Positions 51,728 through 61,681 of a DNA stretch of 64,000 nt are shown one piece after another (position 1 is the stretch's first letter; each line of letters opens with the position of its first letter). Under the pieces are notes generated by a model. It ran no database searches. It was not told the origin of the DNA and saw nothing but the letters and a program-made list of their open reading frames with translations. Both the position numbers and the translations under genes were made by a program. Origin of the DNA: a virus (taxonomy: Duplodnaviria; Caudoviricetes); IMG/VR virus record IMGVR_UViG_3300022752_000016; one strand, given 5' to 3'.

Positions 51728-54700
51728 ATGATTAGAGATGTTTTTTATTATGGCAAGAAGCCTAACATTCATCCAAGAGAAAGATTTGCTAAAAACCTTG
51801 AAGAAGCAAGAGAGTTATCAAATACAGAGCATTTTTGGATAATAAATGAATTTTGTGATTATAAAAATTTTGATTGGGATTTCGATTACGAATTTTTACC
51901 AGACGAGGATGTATGGGCGCAGGATCATATAAATATATGGCCAAGTTTATATCAAAAAGATAGTGGAACATGGTTAGTTCCAAATAATAATAGTTTAGTG
52001 AGAATTTACAGAAATGATGTACAACCTGTAGATAGAAAAATAATTAAAGATAATTGGATTATTTATTCACAAATAGACAGTAAAAAATTTGATTTAAAAT
52101 GGCATCCTGATCCACTTGATCCGCCCTTTATTTATGTATGGGGGAATAAATTTATACCAGCAGAACTGCAACCTACAATAGAATATTATACACCTAGTGC
52201 TGTTGAACGAAAATACATGGGTGAAGTTGAGGTATTACCACAAATGGAACGTTGGGTAATGGTTCAAGATATAACTGAGGATTTTGATTTAACTTGGAGA
52301 CCTGATCCAAGAGAACCTCCGTACATTTACGTTTGGGGAAACAAATATATACCTGGAGAGTTACAATCTACAATTGAATATCATACTCCTAATGCAATCA
52401 ATAAAAAATATATGGGTAATGCACCTGTTTTACCTGATAAAAATTGGAAAATTATACAGGAAATTGATAAAACTAAATTTGATTTATCTTGGAGACCTGA
52501 TCCACGTGAACCTCCATACATTTATACTTGGGGAAATAAGTTTATTCCTGCTGAAATAATGCCTACAATTCAATACTTATGTCCAAACGCTACTGAACAT
52601 AAGTACATGCAAGAACCATTAGAGGTATTACCTGAATATGAAAAATGGGTAGAAGTACAGGCTATCGATAAAACTAAATTTGATTTATCTTGGAGACCTG
52701 ATCCACGTGAACCTCCATATATTTACGTTTGGGGAAACAAATATATACCTGGTGAATTATTACCTACATTGCAATATAATTGTATAGGAGCAAAAGAATA
52801 CAAATATATGGGTGATGTTGAGGTTATTCCAGAACACGAAAAATGGGTAGAAGTACAGGCTATCGACAAAACAAAATTTGATTTATCTTGGAGACCTGAT
52901 CCACGTGAACCTCCATACATTTATACTTGGGGAAATAAATATATACCTGGTGAATTAATGCCAACTTTAGAATATAGATGTATTGGAGCAACAGAACGCA
53001 AATATATGGGTGATGTTGAGGTTATTCCAGAACACGAAAAATGGGTCGAAATTCAACTAATTGATAAGACAACATTTGACATGACATGGAGACCTGATCC
53101 AAGAGAACCTCCATATATTTACGTTTGGGGGAATAAGTTTATTCCTGCAGAATTAATGTCAACTTTAGAATATAGATGTATTGGAGCAAAAGAATACAAA
53201 TATATGGGTGATGTTGAGGTTATTCCAGAACACGATAAATGGGTCGAAGTGCAGTTAATTGATAAGACAAAATTTGACATGACATGGAGACCTGATCCAA
53301 GAGAACCTCCATATATTTACGTTTGGGGGAATAAGTTTATTCCTGCAGAATTAATGCCAACTTTAGAATATAGATGTATTGGAGCCACTGAGCGAAAATA
53401 TATGGGAAATATTGATGTATTGCCTGAGTTTAATAGATGGGTCGAAGTTCAAACTATTGATAAGACTAAATTTGATATGACATGGAGACCTGATCCAAGA
53501 GAACCACCTTATATCTATGTATGGGGAAACAAATATATACCAGGCGAATTAAAATCAACAATTGAATACCATACCCCTAATAGTACTGAACGTAAGTATA
53601 TGGGAGATGTTGATGTTTTACCAGAAACAGAACGTTGGAATATTGTTCAAAAACCTAAGGATTTTGATTTAACATGGAGACCTGACCCAAAAGAACCACC
53701 ATACATTTATGTATGGGGCAATAAATATATACCTGGGGAGATACAATCTACAATAGAATATCATACACCTGACGCTCAAGAAATAAAATATATGGGTGAC
53801 ATAGAAGTTGTACCATATTATGAACATTGGAATATTGTGCAAGAAGTCGGTGATGATTTTGATCTTTGTTGGAGACCTGATCCAAGAGAACCACCATACA
53901 TTTATGTATGGGGGAACAACTATATACCTGGCGAGGTTAAAGCTACAATTGAATATCATACACCTAATAGTATTGAACGCAAGTATATGGGTATTGCCAG
54001 TGTTAAACCTGACAAAAATTGGAAAATTACACAGGATATTGATATTGAAAAATTTGATTTATGTTGGAGACCTGATCCTAGGGAGCCTGCATACATTTAT
54101 ACTTGGGGTAATAAGTATGTAAGTGCTGAACTAGTACCAACCATTGAATATTATACTCCTAACGCCACTGAACGTAAGTATATGGGTGAAGTAGACGTTA
54201 TTCCTGAATTTGATCGTTGGGTAGAAGTACAACCAATTGACAAATCAACATTTGATATGACATGGAGACCTGATCCAAGAGAACCACCATACATTTATGT
54301 ATGGGGTAATAAACATATTCCCGCCGAACTAAAACCCACGCTAGAATATTATACTCCAAACGCAACAGATAGAAAATATATGGGTAATGTTGAAGTTTTA
54401 CCAATAAACGAAAATTGGAAAATTACCCAAGAAGCTATAAACTTTGATTACACATGGAGACCGGACCCAAGAGAACCTGATTATATCTATGTATGGGGTA
54501 ACAAGTATATACCTGGCGAGTTAAAACCTACAATTGAATACATTTGTCCTAACGCTATTGAAAAAAAGTATATGGGGAATGTTGAAGTAGCCTCTGAATG
54601 GGACAAATATAGAATACTGATCCCTGTTGATAAGAATAGTTTTGATTTTAGTTGGAGACCTGATCCAAGAGAGCCTCCCTATATTTACGTTTGGGGCAAT

Positions 54701-57556
54701 CAAACTAATAGTGCCACTATAGAACCTACGATAGAATATCATTGCACAGGTGCTGTTGAACGCAAATACATGGTTGACAGAGTAGCTACAACGTTACCAG
54801 ATATTGAAAAATTTAAAATTTTAATTTCAGTAAAAGATTTTGATTTTAGTTGGAGACCAGATCCTCATAGTCCTCCTTATATCTACGTGTTTGGTAACCA
54901 ATGGCATGATGCAATGACTGAACCTACAGTAGAATATCATGTACCTGGTGCGAAAGAAAAAAAATATATAACAGATATTATAGCGAAGGTAAGTCCTACA
55001 CAGGAAAATTGGAAAACACTTATCCCTGTTGTAGATTTTGATTATAGCTGGAGGCCTAACCCACACAGTACTCCATACATTTATGTATTTGGAAATCAAT
55101 GGAATCCTATTGAATTAGAGCATACAGTTGAATACCATACACCTGGGGCAAAAGACTACAAATATATAACAGATATTGTAGCAAATCTTAAACCAACTAA
55201 CACTGAAAAACATTGGAAAAGGTTGTTACCTGTTGAAAGTTTTGATTATAGTTGGAAACCTGATCCAAGAGAACCTGCATTAATATATGTATTTGGAAAT
55301 AAATGGAATGATTCTAAGACTGAGCCTACTATTGAATATCATTGTGAAGGTGCTACAGAACGAAAATACTTAGATTTTCCTGTAGCTAAACCCACAGTTG
55401 AATTTAAATATTGGTCCATATCAAATAATTACGATCTAGAATCATTTGATTTTAGTTGGAGACCTAATCCGCATAGTCCACCACAAATTTATCAATGGGA
55501 AAATAATGGTCCAAGATATAATGTACCAGGTGCTACAGACGTTGTATTAATGAAAAGAATTGATACTGACTATGCACCGAAAATTAATAAATATTTTATT
55601 AAAACTAACCTTACCGATTTGATTAGTGAACATCCAAATGAAGTATTTTGGGCTTTAAATCCTGATCTAAATTATGATAAGTTTGACTTTACATGGAAGC
55701 CTAATAAAGAAAATTTTACACACATAAATGTTTTTGGTAATGAATATAGTAAAAATACCCACACATATTATATAAACGGGCCAATGTATAACTTGGGATA
55801 TAGGCAATATAATTATATAAATAATCAAAAATTTAGTGGGGATACAAACCTTTCAATGTTTTTTATTGATAGGGGTAATGATTATAGTCAAAAAAGATTC
55901 GATGCACTTAAAACAAAGTACCCACAATTACAAAAAACAAGATTTCTAAATTCTTGGGTAGATACTATTAATCGTTGCACTCAAAAATCTTATACAAAGT
56001 TCCTTTGGGTTTTAAGTAGCGAATTAGATTATAGTGAATTTGAGTTTGACTTTTATCCTAGTCCATGGCAAGAAAAAATGGTACATGTGTTTGGTACACA
56101 ATGGAGTCATTGGGGTAATACATACCTAATAAACAAGGAAACATTTGCAAATGATACTAAGTATATAAAAATTATTGAACATTTGTCATGTTTAAATTTT
56201 GTCAAAACTAAACGTGCAAAAGCTGTGGACATTATTTATGATATTGTCTATATTGACCACAAAAATACAAAAGTGGATAGTAATAAATTTAAATATGTGA
56301 TTGAGTATGAGGATAATTATTATAAAACTTTTAAAAAATTAATTGATGTTTTACCTAAAAAGAAAGAGCATTATATTTGGATAATAAGTTCAATCTGTGA
56401 TTATACAAACTTTAATTTTACTTACATTTGTGACCCATTTGCTAAAGAACAATTACACGTTTTTCCAAGCGATAAACAAAAATATGGTGACACATTTTTT
56501 GTAGACGTTAATAATTTACGTGAACAAATTGAAAATATTGAAAAACTTAAAAATTTTACAAAAATAAATTTTAATAATCATCAAACAGTAAAAAGATTAG
56601 ATTGTCCTAAATTTGTAATAGAGGATGATACTTTTGTAAATTCAATTAATGTTGAATTTAATTTTCCCTATGCAAATTTTGTAACGGTAGATAATTGTAC
56701 ATTAAATGTTGTGGACGATGATCCAATCAATTTGTGGGAAGAAGAAACAAAAAATATTATAGTGCAAAGTACAGGTAATACAAATATTATTATACCCAAA
56801 GAAGTAAAGAAATATGTAAAAAAAGAATTGTATGATTATCCTTATATCACTAAACGTGATAAATTACAATCAAGTTTTCCATTAGATATTGTTTTTTTAA
56901 GTAATGGTGAAAAAAATGCTGATGCAAACTATGAACATCTATTATCTGTAATAAAAAATAAACCAAATAGAGTAATAAGAGTTGATGGTATTAATGGTAG
57001 AAAAAATGCAAATTACGCAGTTGCAGATATTAGTAATACTCCTTGGATGTTTGTAGTATTTGCAAAGTTAAAAGTAAAAGAAAACTTTGATTGGGATTGG
57101 CAACCTGATAGAATGCAATTACCAAAACATTATATTTTTTATGCTAGGAATCCTGTTAATGGTTTGTTTTACGGACACCAAGCAATGATAGCATGGAATA
57201 AAAATATAGTTTTACAAACACAAGGAGTAGACTTAGATTTTACAATGGAAGGTAACCATGAAGTTGTTAAGATAGATAGCGGAACACCTTATTATAATAC
57301 AGATGAATATAGCACATGGAGGACTGCTTTTAGAGAGGTTATAAAATTGAAGTATTACAACAATAAAGAAAGTCAGCATCGTTTAAAAGTATGGTCAAGT
57401 ATAGCAGAAGGTGATTTTGCCCAATTTAGTTTACAAGGAGCAAAACATGCTATAGATTACTTTAATGCGGTTGATGGTAATATTGATAAATTAAAATTAA
57501 GTTACGAATGGGCTTGGTGTAAAGAATATTTTCTTAAAAAGTATGATAGAATTTAA
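51728..57556 (+). CDS. 1,942-aa tandem-repeat protein with degenerate GT-A-like C-terminal modules
   Basis: 18 copies of FD.(S/T)WRPDPREPPYIYVWGNK. The C-terminus LDIVFLSNGE...RVDGING...WRTAFREVIKL parallels 37535..38497. Confidence 0.8.
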   Translation: MIRDVFYYGKKPNIHPRERFAKNLEEARELSNTEHFWIINEFCDYKNFDWDFDYEFLPDEDVWAQDHINIWPSLYQKDSGTWLVPNNNSLVRIYRNDVQPVDRKIIKDNWIIYSQIDSKKFDLKWHPDPLDPPFIYVWGNKFIPAELQPTIEYYTPSAVERKYMGEVEVLPQMERWVMVQDITEDFDLTWRPDPREPPYIYVWGNKYIPGELQSTIEYHTPNAINKKYMGNAPVLPDKNWKIIQEIDKTKFDLSWRPDPREPPYIYTWGNKFIPAEIMPTIQYLCPNATEHKYMQEPLEVLPEYEKWVEVQAIDKTKFDLSWRPDPREPPYIYVWGNKYIPGELLPTLQYNCIGAKEYKYMGDVEVIPEHEKWVEVQAIDKTKFDLSWRPDPREPPYIYTWGNKYIPGELMPTLEYRCIGATERKYMGDVEVIPEHEKWVEIQLIDKTTFDMTWRPDPREPPYIYVWGNKFIPAELMSTLEYRCIGAKEYKYMGDVEVIPEHDKWVEVQLIDKTKFDMTWRPDPREPPYIYVWGNKFIPAELMPTLEYRCIGATERKYMGNIDVLPEFNRWVEVQTIDKTKFDMTWRPDPREPPYIYVWGNKYIPGELKSTIEYHTPNSTERKYMGDVDVLPETERWNIVQKPKDFDLTWRPDPKEPPYIYVWGNKYIPGEIQSTIEYHTPDAQEIKYMGDIEVVPYYEHWNIVQEVGDDFDLCWRPDPREPPYIYVWGNNYIPGEVKATIEYHTPNSIERKYMGIASVKPDKNWKITQDIDIEKFDLCWRPDPREPAYIYTWGNKYVSAELVPTIEYYTPNATERKYMGEVDVIPEFDRWVEVQPIDKSTFDMTWRPDPREPPYIYVWGNKHIPAELKPTLEYYTPNATDRKYMGNVEVLPINENWKITQEAINFDYTWRPDPREPDYIYVWGNKYIPGELKPTIEYICPNAIEKKYMGNVEVASEWDKYRILIPVDKNSFDFSWRPDPREPPYIYVWGNQTNSATIEPTIEYHCTGAVERKYMVDRVATTLPDIEKFKILISVKDFDFSWRPDPHSPPYIYVFGNQWHDAMTEPTVEYHVPGAKEKKYITDIIAKVSPTQENWKTLIPVVDFDYSWRPNPHSTPYIYVFGNQWNPIELEHTVEYHTPGAKDYKYITDIVANLKPTNTEKHWKRLLPVESFDYSWKPDPREPALIYVFGNKWNDSKTEPTIEYHCEGATERKYLDFPVAKPTVEFKYWSISNNYDLESFDFSWRPNPHSPPQIYQWENNGPRYNVPGATDVVLMKRIDTDYAPKINKYFIKTNLTDLISEHPNEVFWALNPDLNYDKFDFTWKPNKENFTHINVFGNEYSKNTHTYYINGPMYNLGYRQYNYINNQKFSGDTNLSMFFIDRGNDYSQKRFDALKTKYPQLQKTRFLNSWVDTINRCTQKSYTKFLWVLSSELDYSEFEFDFYPSPWQEKMVHVFGTQWSHWGNTYLINKETFANDTKYIKIIEHLSCLNFVKTKRAKAVDIIYDIVYIDHKNTKVDSNKFKYVIEYEDNYYKTFKKLIDVLPKKKEHYIWIISSICDYTNFNFTYICDPFAKEQLHVFPSDKQKYGDTFFVDVNNLREQIENIEKLKNFTKINFNNHQTVKRLDCPKFVIEDDTFVNSINVEFNFPYANFVTVDNCTLNVVDDDPINLWEEETKNIIVQSTGNTNIIIPKEVKKYVKKELYDYPYITKRDKLQSSFPLDIVFLSNGEKNADANYEHLLSVIKNKPNRVIRVDGINGRKNANYAVADISNTPWMFVVFAKLKVKENFDWDWQPDRMQLPKHYIFYARNPVNGLFYGHQAMIAWNKNIVLQTQGVDLDFTMEGNHEVVKIDSGTPYYNTDEYSTWRTAFREVIKLKYYNNKESQHRLKVWSSIAEGDFAQFSLQGAKHAIDYFNAVDGNIDKLKLSYEWAWCKEYFLKKYDRI
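52050..55560 (+). repeat. Coding tandem array, 18 units of 192-204 bp (mode 198 bp / 66 aa)
   Basis: TGG of the W-x-P-D/N-P core at 52100, 52295, 52490, 52691, 52889, 53087, 53285, 53483, 53675, 53870, 54065, 54263, 54455, 54653, 54851, 55049, 55253 and 55457. Confidence 0.95.
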
Positions 57557-57561
57557 AAAAT

Positions 57562-57696
57562 ATGTTATTACTTTTTTCATCTCATTTAAATCATTCTATT
57601 TTACAAAATTTATCACAGGAAGAAAGATTTGTAGTTGCTTTTAATTTTTTTATGAAGGGAAATATAGGTACTAATGAATGGATGTTAAAACTATAA
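57562..57696 (+). pseudogene. C-terminal remnant of a 2OG-Fe(II) oxygenase (TIGR02466-like)
   Basis: MLLLFSSHLNHSILQNLSQEERFVVAFNFFMKGNIG matches the LxLFPSxLxHxVxxNxSxxxRxxxAFN tail. An in-frame TAG at 57547-57549 means the HxD half is absent. Confidence 0.65.
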
Positions 57697-57699
57697 ATA
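57692..57699 (+). promoter_or_regulatory. T4-type late promoter TATAAATA (tmRNA precursor)
   Basis: Exact consensus just upstream of the acceptor piece. Confidence 0.7.
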
Positions 57700-57709
57700 A
57701 AGAATAAAG

Positions 57710-57774
57710 AATTGTTGTATGAAGTTGAAGGAAAAGTGCTGCGGACGCGGGTTCGACTCCCGCCTGGTCCACCA
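57710..57774 (+). ncRNA. ssrA: Permuted tmRNA, acceptor piece (T arm, 3' acceptor strand, ACCA)
   Basis: GGAC-GCGGG-TTCGACT-CCCGC-CTGGTCC-A-CCA ends at 57774. The 5' boundary is approximate, just downstream of TATAAATA 57692-57699. Confidence 0.92.
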
Positions 57775-57813
57775 TAAGGAAATATCCATAAGGAAATATC
57801 CATAAGGAAATAT
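57772..57813 (+). repeat. Three tandem 14-bp copies of CCATAAGGAAATAT
   Basis: 57772-57785, 57786-57799 and 57800-57813; the first copy begins with the tmRNA CCA and the last abuts ATG 57814. Confidence 0.95.
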
Positions 57814-57999
57814 ATGAGAGTTACAAACACAGAATCAATTCAACTTACACCTAAAGATGGTAAATGGTATGCTATGCCAAATGACCAATACATTAGATGG
57901 AATTTTGATGAGAGAATTTGGGATTATATGATCACAAAAGAAGGGGACACAAAGCCTAGATTTTGGGATCAATTACCGGATGGTACGGTTTCCTTATGA
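57814..57999 (+). CDS. 61-aa Trp-rich protein encoded inside the tmRNA intervening segment
   Basis: SD TAAGGA upstream of ATG; the ORF fills the segment and its TGA ends 1 nt before tmRNA G1 (58001). Confidence 0.7.
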   Translation: MRVTNTESIQLTPKDGKWYAMPNDQYIRWNFDERIWDYMITKEGDTKPRFWDQLPDGTVSL

Positions 58000-58087
58000 T
58001 GGGCCAGACATGGTTTCGACGGGGTAAAGAGTACGGATATGGACAACACGGTAGGCGAAGACCGCAAATCTAGCAAAGCAAATAGAC

Positions 58088-58132
58088 GCAAATGACGACT
58101 ATTTTTATCAGGATCTCAAGCTAGCCGCTTGA
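58088..58132 (+). other. tmRNA tag reading frame ANDDYFYQDLKLAA*
   Basis: gca aat gac gac tat ttt tat cag gat ctc aag cta gcc gct tga; the stop lies in hairpin CTCAAGC/GCTTGAG. Confidence 0.92.
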
Positions 58133-58171
58133 GCCTGACGGGGTAGGAAAGACCTTGTAACCAAACAAACC

Positions 58172-58193
58172 TAGGCTCTACGGAGCCTATTTT
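58172..58193 (+). terminator. Hairpin/terminator at the end of the tmRNA coding piece
   Basis: TAGGCTC-TACG-GAGCCTA-TTTT (7-bp stem, C-UACG-G tetraloop). Confidence 0.75.
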
Positions 58194-58328
58194 ACCCAAT
58201 ATCTATAGACATTGCGTAAAAAAGTGTTATAGTTTGCACTAATACTTTAATTAATTAGGTTAGATTATATGCACTAAATATTAATCTACACCTGATTTTT
58301 ATCAGGTATTATTTTATAAGGAACTAGA

Positions 58329-59342
58329 ATGAAAAAACTTTTATTAGCGTCACTTATTGCAGGTGCTACATCAGTTGCAGTTGCACAAACAACTGTATAT
58401 GGTTTGGCTGATGCATATTATGGACATCAAACAAATGCAAAAAATAGCAATCAAGTAAATGCTGGTGGTATGACAACTAGTTACATTGGTATCAGTGCAT
58501 CTGAAAAAATTGGCGATCTACAAGCTAGAGCAGTATTAGAGACATTTTTGCGTCCTGATACCGCACAACAAGGTCGTTTTAATAATGATACTTTTTATGC
58601 AAGAAACGCATATGTTGCACTATCATCTAAAGCAGGTGAAGTACAACTTGGTCGTGTAACTACACCATACTTTATCTCAACAATTGCATTTAATGCATTA
58701 GGTGATAGCTTTGTATTCAGTCCAACAGTAACATCAAGGGTTGGAGTTAATAACTTTAATCTTGGTGGTGGTGGAAGTGATACAGGATGGAATAACTCAG
58801 TTTTAGTAAAAACTAGTATGGCTGGTTTAGCACTTACAGGTGTCTATAGTGCAGGAGTTACTGATGATAGCAACGCAAAATTATCAGGTAAAAGCGTTGG
58901 CGCCATGTACTTTCAAGGTCCAATTGGTTTAACTGCAACTTGGCAAGACGTAGAGCAAGGCGCAGGTAAAGCAAGTATGTCATCAACAATCGTTGGTGCA
59001 AGTTATGATCTTAAAGTAGCAAAGGTGTTTGCTCAACATGAGACTGTTAAAAACAGCGATAATGTAACAAAAGAAGATAGAGGTTATACAGTAGGCGCAA
59101 CAATGCCAATGGGTAAAAATACTCTAATGGCAAGCTATGCAAAGAAAGACCATGATTTCACAAATGGTAGAACTGCTGAAACAGCAAGCTGGGCAGTAGG
59201 TGTAAGCCATGCACTAAGCAAGCGTACTGATTTATATGCTGCTGTACGTGATACAAATTATACTAATGACGGTTTAAATAGAACAAATGCAAACTTCGTC
59301 GATACCCGTGTAACAGGTGTAGGCGTACGTCATCGTTTTTAA
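58329..59342 (+). CDS. Outer-membrane porin (Gram-negative/Neisseria-Burkholderia-type)
   Basis: Signal peptide MKKLLLASLIAGATSVAVA-Q; TVYGLADAY; GASYDLKVAK; LSKRTDLYA; C-terminal HRF (BAM-type Phe). Confidence 0.92.
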   Translation: MKKLLLASLIAGATSVAVAQTTVYGLADAYYGHQTNAKNSNQVNAGGMTTSYIGISASEKIGDLQARAVLETFLRPDTAQQGRFNNDTFYARNAYVALSSKAGEVQLGRVTTPYFISTIAFNALGDSFVFSPTVTSRVGVNNFNLGGGGSDTGWNNSVLVKTSMAGLALTGVYSAGVTDDSNAKLSGKSVGAMYFQGPIGLTATWQDVEQGAGKASMSSTIVGASYDLKVAKVFAQHETVKNSDNVTKEDRGYTVGATMPMGKNTLMASYAKKDHDFTNGRTAETASWAVGVSHALSKRTDLYAAVRDTNYTNDGLNRTNANFVDTRVTGVGVRHRF

Positions 59343-59584: not shown

Positions 59585-61681
59585 ATGGACATTAAAGAAC
59601 TACACTCATTTAGATTAAGTGACGCAGTAAAATTTCAGGATAAACTTAACCCAAAATTATTCTTGGGAAACCGTTTAGATCCTGCTGTAAAAAATCAATT
59701 AATTACAATTGCTAAAGATTTTCTTACAGAATTAGGGATAGGTGATGTAAAAGTTAAAGATATAACAATATCAGGTAGCAATGCAGCATTTACTTATACA
59801 CCACATAGCGATTTAGACTTACACATAGTTGTTGATTATAATCAATTTTCCAATGATAGCGTTTACAAAGAATTGTTTAACGCTAAGAAAAATTTATACA
59901 ACGATAGTCATAACATTACAATACGTGGTATTCCAGTAGAAGTATATATGGAAGATAGCAATGAACCAGTCATTAGTGTTGGTGAATACAGTATACTAAA
60001 GGATAAATGGAATCAAATTCCAACTAAACGTAGAGCAAACTTTGATCAAACTGCCACTAAGGCGAAGTATGGTAAACTAAATGATTTTATACTAAGAGCA
60101 TTAAAAGAAAAAAGTAGCAAAAAGATAGCCAAAGCATTAAAAATAATTAAGCGTTACAGACAAGCAGGGTTAGATAAAGGTGGTGAGTTTAGTCCTGAAA
60201 ATTTAGCATACAAAGCTTTACGTAGTCAAAAAGCAATTGAAAAACTATATAAGTTGCGTGATGAATTACATAGTAAAGAATTAAGTATTGAAAACATGTA
60301 TCAGGAACAAAAGCTAAATCGATTCGATGAAGACATTCCAGTTCAAAAAGGACCAGCGCGGTTAAAAAGACAAAGTGAATTAGAAAAGACACAAGACGAA
60401 TTAGGATCAGGTTTTTTTGGTACAGTTTATGATGAACCAAAAAGTAAAACTGGTGTAGGCACTGCTAGAAAAGTTTCTACATTTGATAGAGATGAGATGA
60501 CTGCTGACGGGTATTATGCTTATATCAATAAGATTATTGATCTTAAAAATGAAACTAATAATCCATACTTACCACAAGTATATGATGCTAAAGTTGTAAA
60601 ACCAAAGTCAGTAGGAAGTGAGCCATACTTTGAATTAGAACTTGAAAAATTAAGTAAATGGGAAGATTTAAGTGGTAATCAATTACGAGCAATACTAGAA
60701 AAAATGCTTGATGAAAGTTTTGAAAATGAAAAGAAACTACAAGATGTTTTGAAATTTTTAGGGCATTCAGGTGCGTCAGATACGAGTGACGAATGGTTAA
60801 TGTATGTAATTTTATATTTTATTAGGCTTACAATTAAAAATCCAAACTTTAGTTTAATGGGTATGAAAATTCGTGACCCACAACTTCTTGAAGTCACTGA
60901 TATGTTAAGATATCTGTCTAAGTCAGGGTATGGTATGGACTTACATGATCAAAATATCATGGTAAGAAATAGTAAATATGGCCCACAATTAGTTATTACA
61001 GATCCTTTAAGCTTTGGTGAAACTAGTCAGATACGAAAATTTAAACAAGGCAATATGAAAATGGATGTAAGGGGTGTAACTATACCACCTAATTACATAA
61101 TTTATGACATACATGATAAAGATAGACCAGTATTGCGTGGCTATGGCAGTTACGAAGAAATCTACCAACAATTCATAGAATTAAAGAATAAAAAACCATA
61201 TAATGATTATGAAATAGCTCCAATGAATCAAAAAGCTTCGGATGAAATGGATGCGAAGCAAGCAAGTGTAAAAGCAAAGTATAAAGAAAAACCACCTGCA
61301 AATCCTAAATATCAGCTTAAACCAAAATATACTTATGCTGTTTATGATAAAGATAAAACAAGCAATATGCTAATTGGTTATGTTAATGCTAACCATGATT
61401 CTGAAGCATTGGGATTGGCAAGAAAAAAATTCCCCGATGTAAAAAATATTAATGTGTTGCCTGATTTACTTGGTGATCCAAATGATAAATTTGCTGGTAT
61501 GTTAGAAGAAGCATTGGGTGAAAGTGCCTCGGGATATATCCCAAGCAAAAAACAAGCTAATGACCCAAGATTTAAGACTGCCTTGACAGTAGACATAAAA
61601 CCCGATAGCATCCAAAAGAATGCCAAAGCTTTTGGGTTTAAAGTAAAAAGGTCTGGAATCCCACCCCTGCTAAGACCCTAA
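59585..61681 (+). CDS. Pol-beta-superfamily nucleotidyltransferase fused to a T7 gp0.7-like protein kinase domain
   Basis: ISGSNAAFTYTPHSDLDLHIV (GS...DxD). Kinase motifs LGSGFFGTVY, ARKV, LPQVYD, DLHDQNIM, ITDPLSF. Confidence 0.8.
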   Translation: MDIKELHSFRLSDAVKFQDKLNPKLFLGNRLDPAVKNQLITIAKDFLTELGIGDVKVKDITISGSNAAFTYTPHSDLDLHIVVDYNQFSNDSVYKELFNAKKNLYNDSHNITIRGIPVEVYMEDSNEPVISVGEYSILKDKWNQIPTKRRANFDQTATKAKYGKLNDFILRALKEKSSKKIAKALKIIKRYRQAGLDKGGEFSPENLAYKALRSQKAIEKLYKLRDELHSKELSIENMYQEQKLNRFDEDIPVQKGPARLKRQSELEKTQDELGSGFFGTVYDEPKSKTGVGTARKVSTFDRDEMTADGYYAYINKIIDLKNETNNPYLPQVYDAKVVKPKSVGSEPYFELELEKLSKWEDLSGNQLRAILEKMLDESFENEKKLQDVLKFLGHSGASDTSDEWLMYVILYFIRLTIKNPNFSLMGMKIRDPQLLEVTDMLRYLSKSGYGMDLHDQNIMVRNSKYGPQLVITDPLSFGETSQIRKFKQGNMKMDVRGVTIPPNYIIYDIHDKDRPVLRGYGSYEEIYQQFIELKNKKPYNDYEIAPMNQKASDEMDAKQASVKAKYKEKPPANPKYQLKPKYTYAVYDKDKTSNMLIGYVNANHDSEALGLARKKFPDVKNINVLPDLLGDPNDKFAGMLEEALGESASGYIPSKKQANDPRFKTALTVDIKPDSIQKNAKAFGFKVKRSGIPPLLRP

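Follow-up and report, generated by a model that had tools for sequence, protein, structure and literature searches.

Protein-coding messages can lie in segments that are cut from, or bounded by, stable-RNA structures, as with the S23p open reading frames (ORFs) in the excised 23S rRNA intervening sequences of Leptospira and Coxiella and with the "tRNA punctuation" of mitochondrial mRNAs. Tandem repeats that re-copy a CCA end can also follow directly after a tRNA-like 3' end, on a precursor that includes a small ORF. In the E. coli tyrT operon (RtT RNA, RF00391; small Tpr ORF) such units are ~178 nt long and copy ~19 nt of the tRNA. Sharkady and Williams reportedly described the betaproteobacterial-type permuted tmRNA (RF01850) in 2004.

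The intervening segment (IVS) of a permuted tmRNA is excised by tRNA-processing enzymes (PMC11915505). Among phages, a permuted ssrA gene that runs from acceptor piece through IVS to a coding piece with the tag frame is carried by aquatic T4-like phages such as the OM43 phage Melnitz and the pelagimyophages (PMC9004378). The account of Melnitz covers two-piece tmRNAs of phages and mentions no IVS genes (PMC9004378), and the IVS contents named in the 2025 tmRNA database paper are a tRNA gene and a repetitive element, with no protein genes (PMC11915505). Neither an IVS protein gene nor tandem CCA/ribosome-site units are described for the Melnitz and pelagimyophage tmRNAs in PMC9004378, PMC11915505 or PMC4131195, and our full-text literature searches yielded no description of protein genes inside phage tmRNA spacers. 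With regard to translation, a ribosome-binding site held in a stable helix limits initiation and an accessible or standby site relieves that limit (PMC3936740), while dinQ is a case of processing-activated translation (PMC5066626).

The locus analysed here has the gene order of the aquatic T4-like phage tmRNAs, but it carries both an IVS protein gene and tandem CCA/ribosome-site units, and its tmRNA is of beta type whereas theirs are of alpha type. It shares gene order and tRNA-like domain with the betaproteobacterial type, from which it differs in belonging to a phage lineage (its 32-nt acceptor end occurs at no fewer than 119 phage loci) and in using the IVS as a gene slot. Compared with tyrT, the tandem units are 14 nt long, copy the CCA only and sit inside a permuted tmRNA gene. 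Compared with S23p and tRNA punctuation, the message is bounded at both ends by one acceptor stem, and its ribosome site and stop codon lie within the closing helix. As in ribosome-site sequestration systems, a buried site appears to be relieved by an unpaired copy or a single-stranded upstream stretch; here, however, it is the processing helix of a stable RNA that sequesters the site, and a natural duplication of one arm would relieve it, rather than a ligand, an sRNA or cleavage.

A permuted beta-type tmRNA gene in a phage record

The window, by which we mean the whole 64-kb stretch analysed, is part of a 137-kb IMG/VR viral record with an estimated completeness of 40% and a G+C content of ~30%; all features below lie on its plus strand unless stated otherwise. 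Positions 57713–58132 match the Rfam model of circularly permuted two-piece tmRNA, RF04321, over model positions 1–213 (114.9 bits against a gathering score of 47; E 1.1e-21), and ARAGORN places a permuted tmRNA at the same locus. The acceptor piece comes first (57713–57774) and contains the T-arm, the acceptor 3' strand (57764–57770), the discriminator base A57771 and the CCA (57772–57774). It is followed by a 226-nt IVS (57775–58000), predicted to be cut out during tmRNA maturation, which corresponds to an insert between RF04321 model positions 86 and 87 and was compared with 69 other IVSs. The coding piece (58001–58195) starts at G58001 with the acceptor 5' strand (58001–58007) and includes the tag frame ANDDYFYQDLKLAA (58088–58132), which ARAGORN reads from an Ala resume codon to a hydrophobic -LAA plus stop. 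It ends in a terminal hairpin (58172–58189) and a T run; the hairpin was listed on the opposite strand by the scan, and the palindrome and the TTTT were read from the sequence. The alanine identity elements of tmRNA are all present, comprising a 7-bp acceptor stem, a G3:U70 wobble (G58003 opposite U57768), the discriminator A and an encoded CCA.

Upstream, we propose with low confidence a candidate promoter region for the tmRNA precursor (57692–57712), consisting of a T4 late-promoter-like TATAAATA box (57692–57699) that overlaps a 7-nt tandem repeat, AATAAAG ×2.4. The repeat was found by Tandem Repeats Finder at 57696–57712, immediately before the acceptor piece, and may be a duplicated promoter element. 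The box is not enriched in the window (19 found vs 25 expected), and a simple sigma-70 scan gave no plus-strand promoter ahead of the tmRNA gene. An Rfam scan of the window gave no riboswitch match, and blastn of the locus against a phage GenBank collection gave no match. A search of the 137-kb record, itself an estimated 40% complete, for SmpB (PF01668) gave no match either, and host SmpB would presumably serve the phage tmRNA.

When the last 32 nt of the acceptor piece were scanned against IMG/VR, at least 119 phage loci were recovered. Among 185,579 species genomes this 32-mer occurs on two small MAG contigs and nowhere else, and this near absence indicates that the tmRNA belongs to a phage lineage. 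One of the two contigs, labelled Clostridiales, holds a standard one-piece tmRNA (L131:4479–4833; 156 bits), and the other, labelled Bifidobacterium, a beta-type permuted tmRNA (L130:3658–4085); both are probably misbinned phage DNA. The assignment to beta rather than alpha type is seen on RF01850, where L130 scores 132.5 bits and L007, a relative considered below, 76.6 bits.

A helix that closes the intervening segment

We extracted 71 distinct complete IVSs of 31–405 nt from 127 loci and computed pairing statistics on the 69 that are at least 40 nt long. They share a common design, in which the first 10–15 bases after the CCA pair with the bases ahead of a terminal TGAT or TAAT, and this tetranucleotide precedes G1. 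Among the first 11 positions, 10.3 are paired within an IVS's own arms, compared with 6.8 when arms are swapped between IVSs, and the 69 distinct IVSs have 51 different 5' arms; the helix is thus kept by covariation. Because the helix covaries in the relatives, the stretch of the window that had been taken for an "anti-repeat" (57989–57998) is the 3' arm of a conserved closing helix, for which we use the interval 57988–58000. This arm also codes for the final (V)SL and the TGA of the nested gene, and its last U pairs with the discriminator base.

With a strength of -14.4 kcal/mol, the closing helix of the window is typical of gene-bearing IVSs. These have slightly weaker helices than non-coding IVSs (-14.1 vs -16.3 kcal/mol), a difference that is not significant (p 0.057). 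Two non-coding IVSs of 72 nt, those of L025 and L086, hold a GGTTCGATTCC-like stretch that resembles a tRNA T-arm, and a tRNA-derived fragment may lie within them.

A tripled 14-mer between discriminator base and start codon

Tandem Repeats Finder reports a repeat of period 14 at 57772–57813, with 3.0 copies, 100% matches and a score of 84. The array begins at the first C of the tmRNA CCA (57772) and stops one base short of the ATG at 57814. Each unit opens with CCA and includes TAAGGA, both of which the sequence-only reading had noted in every 14-mer, and the first CCA is the encoded 3' end of the acceptor piece. The 10-nt complementarity claimed in the same reading also holds, since 57989–57998 is the exact reverse complement of positions 2–11 in all three units. 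Elsewhere in the 64-kb window the 14-mer does not recur; a single match with two mismatches is within chance expectation.

The three copies occupy different structural positions. Copy 1 (57772–57785) comprises the CCA end and the 5' arm of the closing helix and is the partner of the 3' arm. Copy 2 (57786–57799) is surplus to the helix and largely single-stranded, and may be a ribosome standby site or leader. Copy 3 (57800–57813) lies outside the closing helix and places AAGGA (57804–57808) 5 bases ahead of the ATG.

Three copies are also present in seven further contigs with separate sample accessions and in a 270-nt contig of a public DNA run, so the array is no assembly artefact. The three-copy contigs are 99.2–100% identical over up to 6 kb, encode an identical nested protein and represent one phage genotype. 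They therefore confirm the sequence and do not count as independent relatives, and for the same reason the persistence of the triplication tells little about selection.

The nested gene and other genes in tmRNA spacers

A 61-codon ORF (57814–57999, with its TGA at 57997–57999) fills nearly all of the 226-nt IVS. An exhaustive HMMER search found relatives of 61–68 aa with 40–58% identity and 10 invariant residues. Some are free-standing homologues in tight arrays of small phage genes (P0003–P0005 and L132), with longer ends of the form -DGTELxxx. The homologue with 58% identity (P0002; loci L133 and L134) lies again inside a tmRNA IVS, on a third backbone, and has the identical -DGTVSL end. An AlphaFold2 model of the 61-aa protein predicts four beta strands with a mean pLDDT of 90.1. 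Judged by the free-standing homologues, the invariant residues and this confident model, the nested ORF is a real gene and a member of a small phage protein family. The protein falls into no family of Pfam or PHROG, and comparison of its predicted fold with PDB and BFVD gave nothing significant (best E about 0.2–0.3). The ESM Atlas neighbours, Tad2-like and DUF551, derive from an Atlas model of low confidence.

We found that the arrangement recurs in other gene-bearing IVSs, where the 5' arm is the ribosome-binding site and the 3' arm provides the last codons and the stop codon. The 5' arm reads TAAGGAG, TAAGGAA or TAAAGG, and the ATG follows ~13 nt after the CCA. In 16 of 19 such IVSs the ORF ends with the terminal stop, a TGA or in two cases a TAA, which lies one base before G1; the remaining three are run-through or unresolved families, one of which continues into the coding piece. 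ORFs that stop at the terminal stop codon finish -(S/L/F)-(L/F)-stop, because the 3' arm sets the last codons. The gene contents comprise membrane-type peptides of 23–32 aa, ORFs of 25, 49, 55, 64 and 122 aa, and a 128-aa IscU. The complete IscU gene (L110:1388–1771; NifU_N, 186 bits) occupies a 405-nt IVS whose 5' arm supplies the ribosome site and whose terminal TGA serves as the stop, and the 122-aa ORF (L032:538–906) has the same arrangement.

Folding of the precursor

In the minimum-free-energy fold, 57989–57998 pairs with copy 1 (57773–57782). A G-U pair (57988/57783) and a U-A pair (58000/57771) lengthen this helix, which has one A-C mismatch opposite the first C of the CCA and continues straight into the 7-bp acceptor stem (58001–58007 with 57764–57770) to give a composite helix of ~19 bp. 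Constrained folds with the 3' arm placed on copy 1, 2 or 3 have energies of -86.6, -81.3 and -79.6 kcal/mol, so that a move from copy 1 to copy 2 or copy 3 carries a penalty of 5.3 or 7.0 kcal/mol, respectively. Pairing with copy 1 is preferred because this helix stacks on the acceptor stem, while pairing with the other copies creates a bulge of 14 or 28 nt. Ensemble folding of the 420-nt precursor, a thermodynamic treatment that leaves aside ribosomes, proteins and the kinetics of co-transcriptional folding, gives a mean pair probability of 0.988 for the copy-1 register and ~0 for those of copies 2 and 3.

Accessibility of the ribosome site was compared with that in the natural one-copy relative L007. 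The ribosome-site core is unpaired ~45% of the time in copy 3 and ~51% in copy 2, compared with 0% in the one-copy L007 precursor; both G bases of the copy-3 site are mostly paired in the ensemble, within weak local structures. From the coordinates we infer that, in all forms, a ribosome can reach the TGA only by unwinding both the 3' arm and the acceptor stem.

Folding the precursor was one of the checks that the sequence-only reading had itself suggested, and it strongly favoured the copy-1 register. The structural part of that reading is borne out by this fold and its ensemble, in that pairing with copy 1 prolongs the acceptor stem across the IVS ends and leaves the Shine–Dalgarno (SD) sequence of copy 3 free. 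Pairing with copy 3 does hide that SD when it is imposed in the constrained fold. The further proposal, that alternative registers gate processing versus translation, is not supported: those registers are 5.3–7.0 kcal/mol worse and have probabilities near zero, and the relatives have a single copy. We found neither structures of comparable stability nor conservation of the alternative partners in relatives; with no near-energy alternative, no conservation and no visible trigger, the switch fails the tests applied to it.

Copy number in relatives

The most informative relative is L007 (1132–1511), which has the same 198-nt IVS at 100% DNA identity with a single copy of the 14-mer. Its tmRNA backbone is distinct, being 67% identical to that of the window in the acceptor piece and 66% in the coding piece, with a different T-loop and the tag ANDEVFALAA. 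L133 and L134 likewise have a single copy, as does each of the 19 other gene-bearing IVSs examined. A dedicated pattern scan of IMG/VR for a duplicated CCA-arm after an acceptor stem matched only unrelated coding sequences. In IMG/VR apart from the window's own record, neither the 61-aa protein nor the single-copy junction was found. Since the independent relatives all have one copy, comparison of these sequences indicates that the single-copy state is ancestral and the triplication private to this phage genotype. According to the sequence-only reading, single-copy relatives with identical behaviour would refute a switch; the copy-number half of this is what we observed, with one copy in L007, L133 and L134.

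Contigs of three riverine RNA libraries have an L007-type acceptor piece joined directly to the single-copy gene, and the end of the gene joined to an L007-type coding piece. They confirm the single-copy L007-type form. In these contigs, which resolve neither strand, RNA ends nor expression level for the phage of the window and whose gaps in cover were given no weight, related acceptor pieces stop near the CCA and the L007-type precursor is unprocessed. This weakly suggests that an unprocessed L007-type precursor is present as RNA, and the contigs may instead stem from contaminating DNA. A loose end with Illumina adapter at 57772 in one RNA run and high depth over the shared acceptor piece were likewise set aside as evidence on this phage; both belong to related tmRNAs and not specifically to it.

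Apparent exchange of spacers between tmRNA backbones

IVSs and tmRNA backbones are found in many combinations. A single acceptor-piece sequence occurs with 22 different IVSs, and a single non-coding IVS of 74 nt occurs in 10 backbones. L058, whose backbone is the nearest to that of the window, has a non-coding IVS of 70 nt. The nested-gene IVS of the window is itself linked to three backbones, if the hybrid or chimera L004 is included. The block of identity between L007 and the window begins GGTCCA-CCA and ends T-GGGCC, with just ~9 nt of flanking shared sequence per side. A fully identical IVS in backbones that are 66–67% identical implies, as far as the alignments go, that the 198-nt cassette moved laterally between them, recently and precisely. 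L005 and L008 are otherwise 100% identical to the window and have replaced patches in the coding piece (window 58040–58125); the patch in L008 alters the tag to ANDDYFTQEFKLAA. On these comparisons, recombination in this phage population seems to be concentrated at the tmRNA gene.

L004 (1–454) has the 61-aa cassette of the window between an L007-type acceptor piece and a coding piece of yet another, third type, and its tmRNA scores 78.9 bits. Mismatches in the tmRNA helices suggest that this contig could be a chimera created where assembly crossed the common 198 nt; it may also be a natural hybrid, and we use it as a hint only.

Probable origin and proposed role of the triplication

The reading we favour, with a probability of roughly 0.6, is that the triplication arose by slippage and sets translation of the nested gene free from the processing helix. 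In this lineage, replication slippage would have tripled the 14-nt stretch between discriminator base and start codon, which consists of the CCA end and the 5' arm of the closing helix and doubles as the ribosome-binding site of the nested gene. Copy 1 would retain the structural job by pairing with the 3' arm and prolonging the acceptor stem, in a precursor shape common to all relatives and presumably the one that tRNA-processing enzymes handle. Copies 2 and 3 would be surplus to that helix, and copy 3 would offer an unpaired ribosome site 5 bases ahead of the ATG. Initiation on the nested gene would then no longer compete with the processing helix, unlike in the single-copy relatives, and after the cut at the CCA end the released message would keep a 28-nt leader. 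Since a ribosome can occupy copy 3 while copy 1 stays in the helix, competition would be relieved and not exploited. We infer higher translation, any selective benefit and the processing steps from this arrangement. As for its origin, the exact head-to-tail units, placed in the only interval harmless to both the tRNA-like domain and the ORF, argue for slippage followed by purifying selection on the boundaries. The perfect tandem units agree with slippage, one of the simpler explanations that the sequence-only reading had offered beside its switch, and the second short tandem repeat (7 nt ×2.4), 60 nt upstream of the array, fits a local tendency to slip.

Slippage may also have been neutral, an account that we hold to be rather unlikely but the strongest of the alternatives. 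The triplication would then have no meaningful effect on translation or maturation and would persist because the sampled population is nearly clonal. The near identity of the three-copy contigs (99.2–100% over up to 6 kb) is as expected from this account, as are the presence of another short tandem repeat nearby and a closing-helix strength, -14.4 kcal/mol, typical of gene-bearing IVSs. The identical gene, moreover, works with one copy in L007, and its retention by single-copy relatives makes a buried ribosome site evidently workable. Against neutrality, the ribosome site goes from fully paired to a place outside the ~19-bp composite helix, which should alter the translation rate (cf. PMC3936740), and the array fills exactly the sole interval where duplication harms neither the tmRNA nor the ORF. 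A regulatory role of the kind first proposed, with the 3' arm toggling between copy 1 and copy 3 to gate tmRNA processing versus nested-gene translation, is very unlikely. The same 10-bp pairing is on offer in all three copies, pairing with copy 3 would bury an active ribosome site in the constrained fold, and a terminating ribosome, which by the coordinates would open the 3' arm and the acceptor stem, would make translation and tRNA-like folding interfere on one molecule. The energetic penalty of 5.3–7.0 kcal/mol and the ensemble probability of ~0 nevertheless weigh heavily against such toggling. No trigger is apparent, the triplication is absent from every relative and thus no conserved regulatory device, and the compatibility of a ribosome on copy 3 with the helix on copy 1 removes the competition that a switch needs.

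Given that IVSs behave as exchangeable cassettes and that foreign tmRNA patches occur in otherwise identical genomes (L005, L008), the extra CCA-arm units might instead be leftovers of repeated cassette exchange or of integrase action at the tmRNA 3' end. We consider this highly improbable, as identical units abut one another in perfect tandem, a distal copy is lacking, and none of the ~70 other exchanged IVSs has kept such a mark. Classic integration leaves kilobases of island DNA between direct repeats of the 3' end of the gene; here the repeats are head-to-tail with no insert, a distal copy is absent from the 64 kb, and just 3 nt of the mature RNA are repeated, so the integration scar named in the sequence-only reading drops out. 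Quite unlikely, in our estimate, is a broader scheme in which the IVS would be an integron-like cassette slot. Entire gene cassettes of the form CCA-arm/arm'-TGA would move between unrelated tmRNA backbones, tandem units would arise as by-products or intermediates, and their copy number would tune message against tmRNA use. If this were true, the number of tandem CCA-arm copies would be a tunable setting of how far the precursor serves as message or as tmRNA.

By itself, the triplication is a modest lineage-specific variant, and the unusual part is the gene slot inside a stable-RNA gene. The permuted tmRNA spacer, regarded as waste, is a slot for real genes in a large aquatic phage lineage. 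As ribosome site and stop codon are built into the processing helix, one transcript is shared between ribosome rescue and protein synthesis. Returning to uncoupling by slippage, the tripled arm amounts to a natural experiment, with the same gene as in one-copy L007 and a ribosome site released from the helix. The pair formed by the three-copy form and L007 bears on two questions, repression of the nested gene by the helix and competition between translation and tmRNA maturation.

Genes around the locus

Upstream of the tmRNA gene, 51728–57556 encodes a 1942-aa protein with ~25 tandem repeats of ~65 aa (motif WRPDPREPPYIYVWGNK) and a non-repetitive C-terminal part; its Pfam matches are marginal. 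Directly downstream lies a Gram-negative porin gene (58329–59342; Porin_4, E 1.3e-40) whose product has a signal peptide. In the L004 contig, a gene for an SBP_bac_1 solute-binding protein stands in place of the porin gene. A further gene (59585–61681) encodes a protein of 698 aa, in which an N-terminal phrog_36119 region with a weak nucleotidyltransferase signal precedes a central region resembling the T7 gp0.7-type protein kinase (phrog_15752, E 5e-9). The ribosome-site motif TAAGGAA also occurs ahead of the porin gene in this phage.
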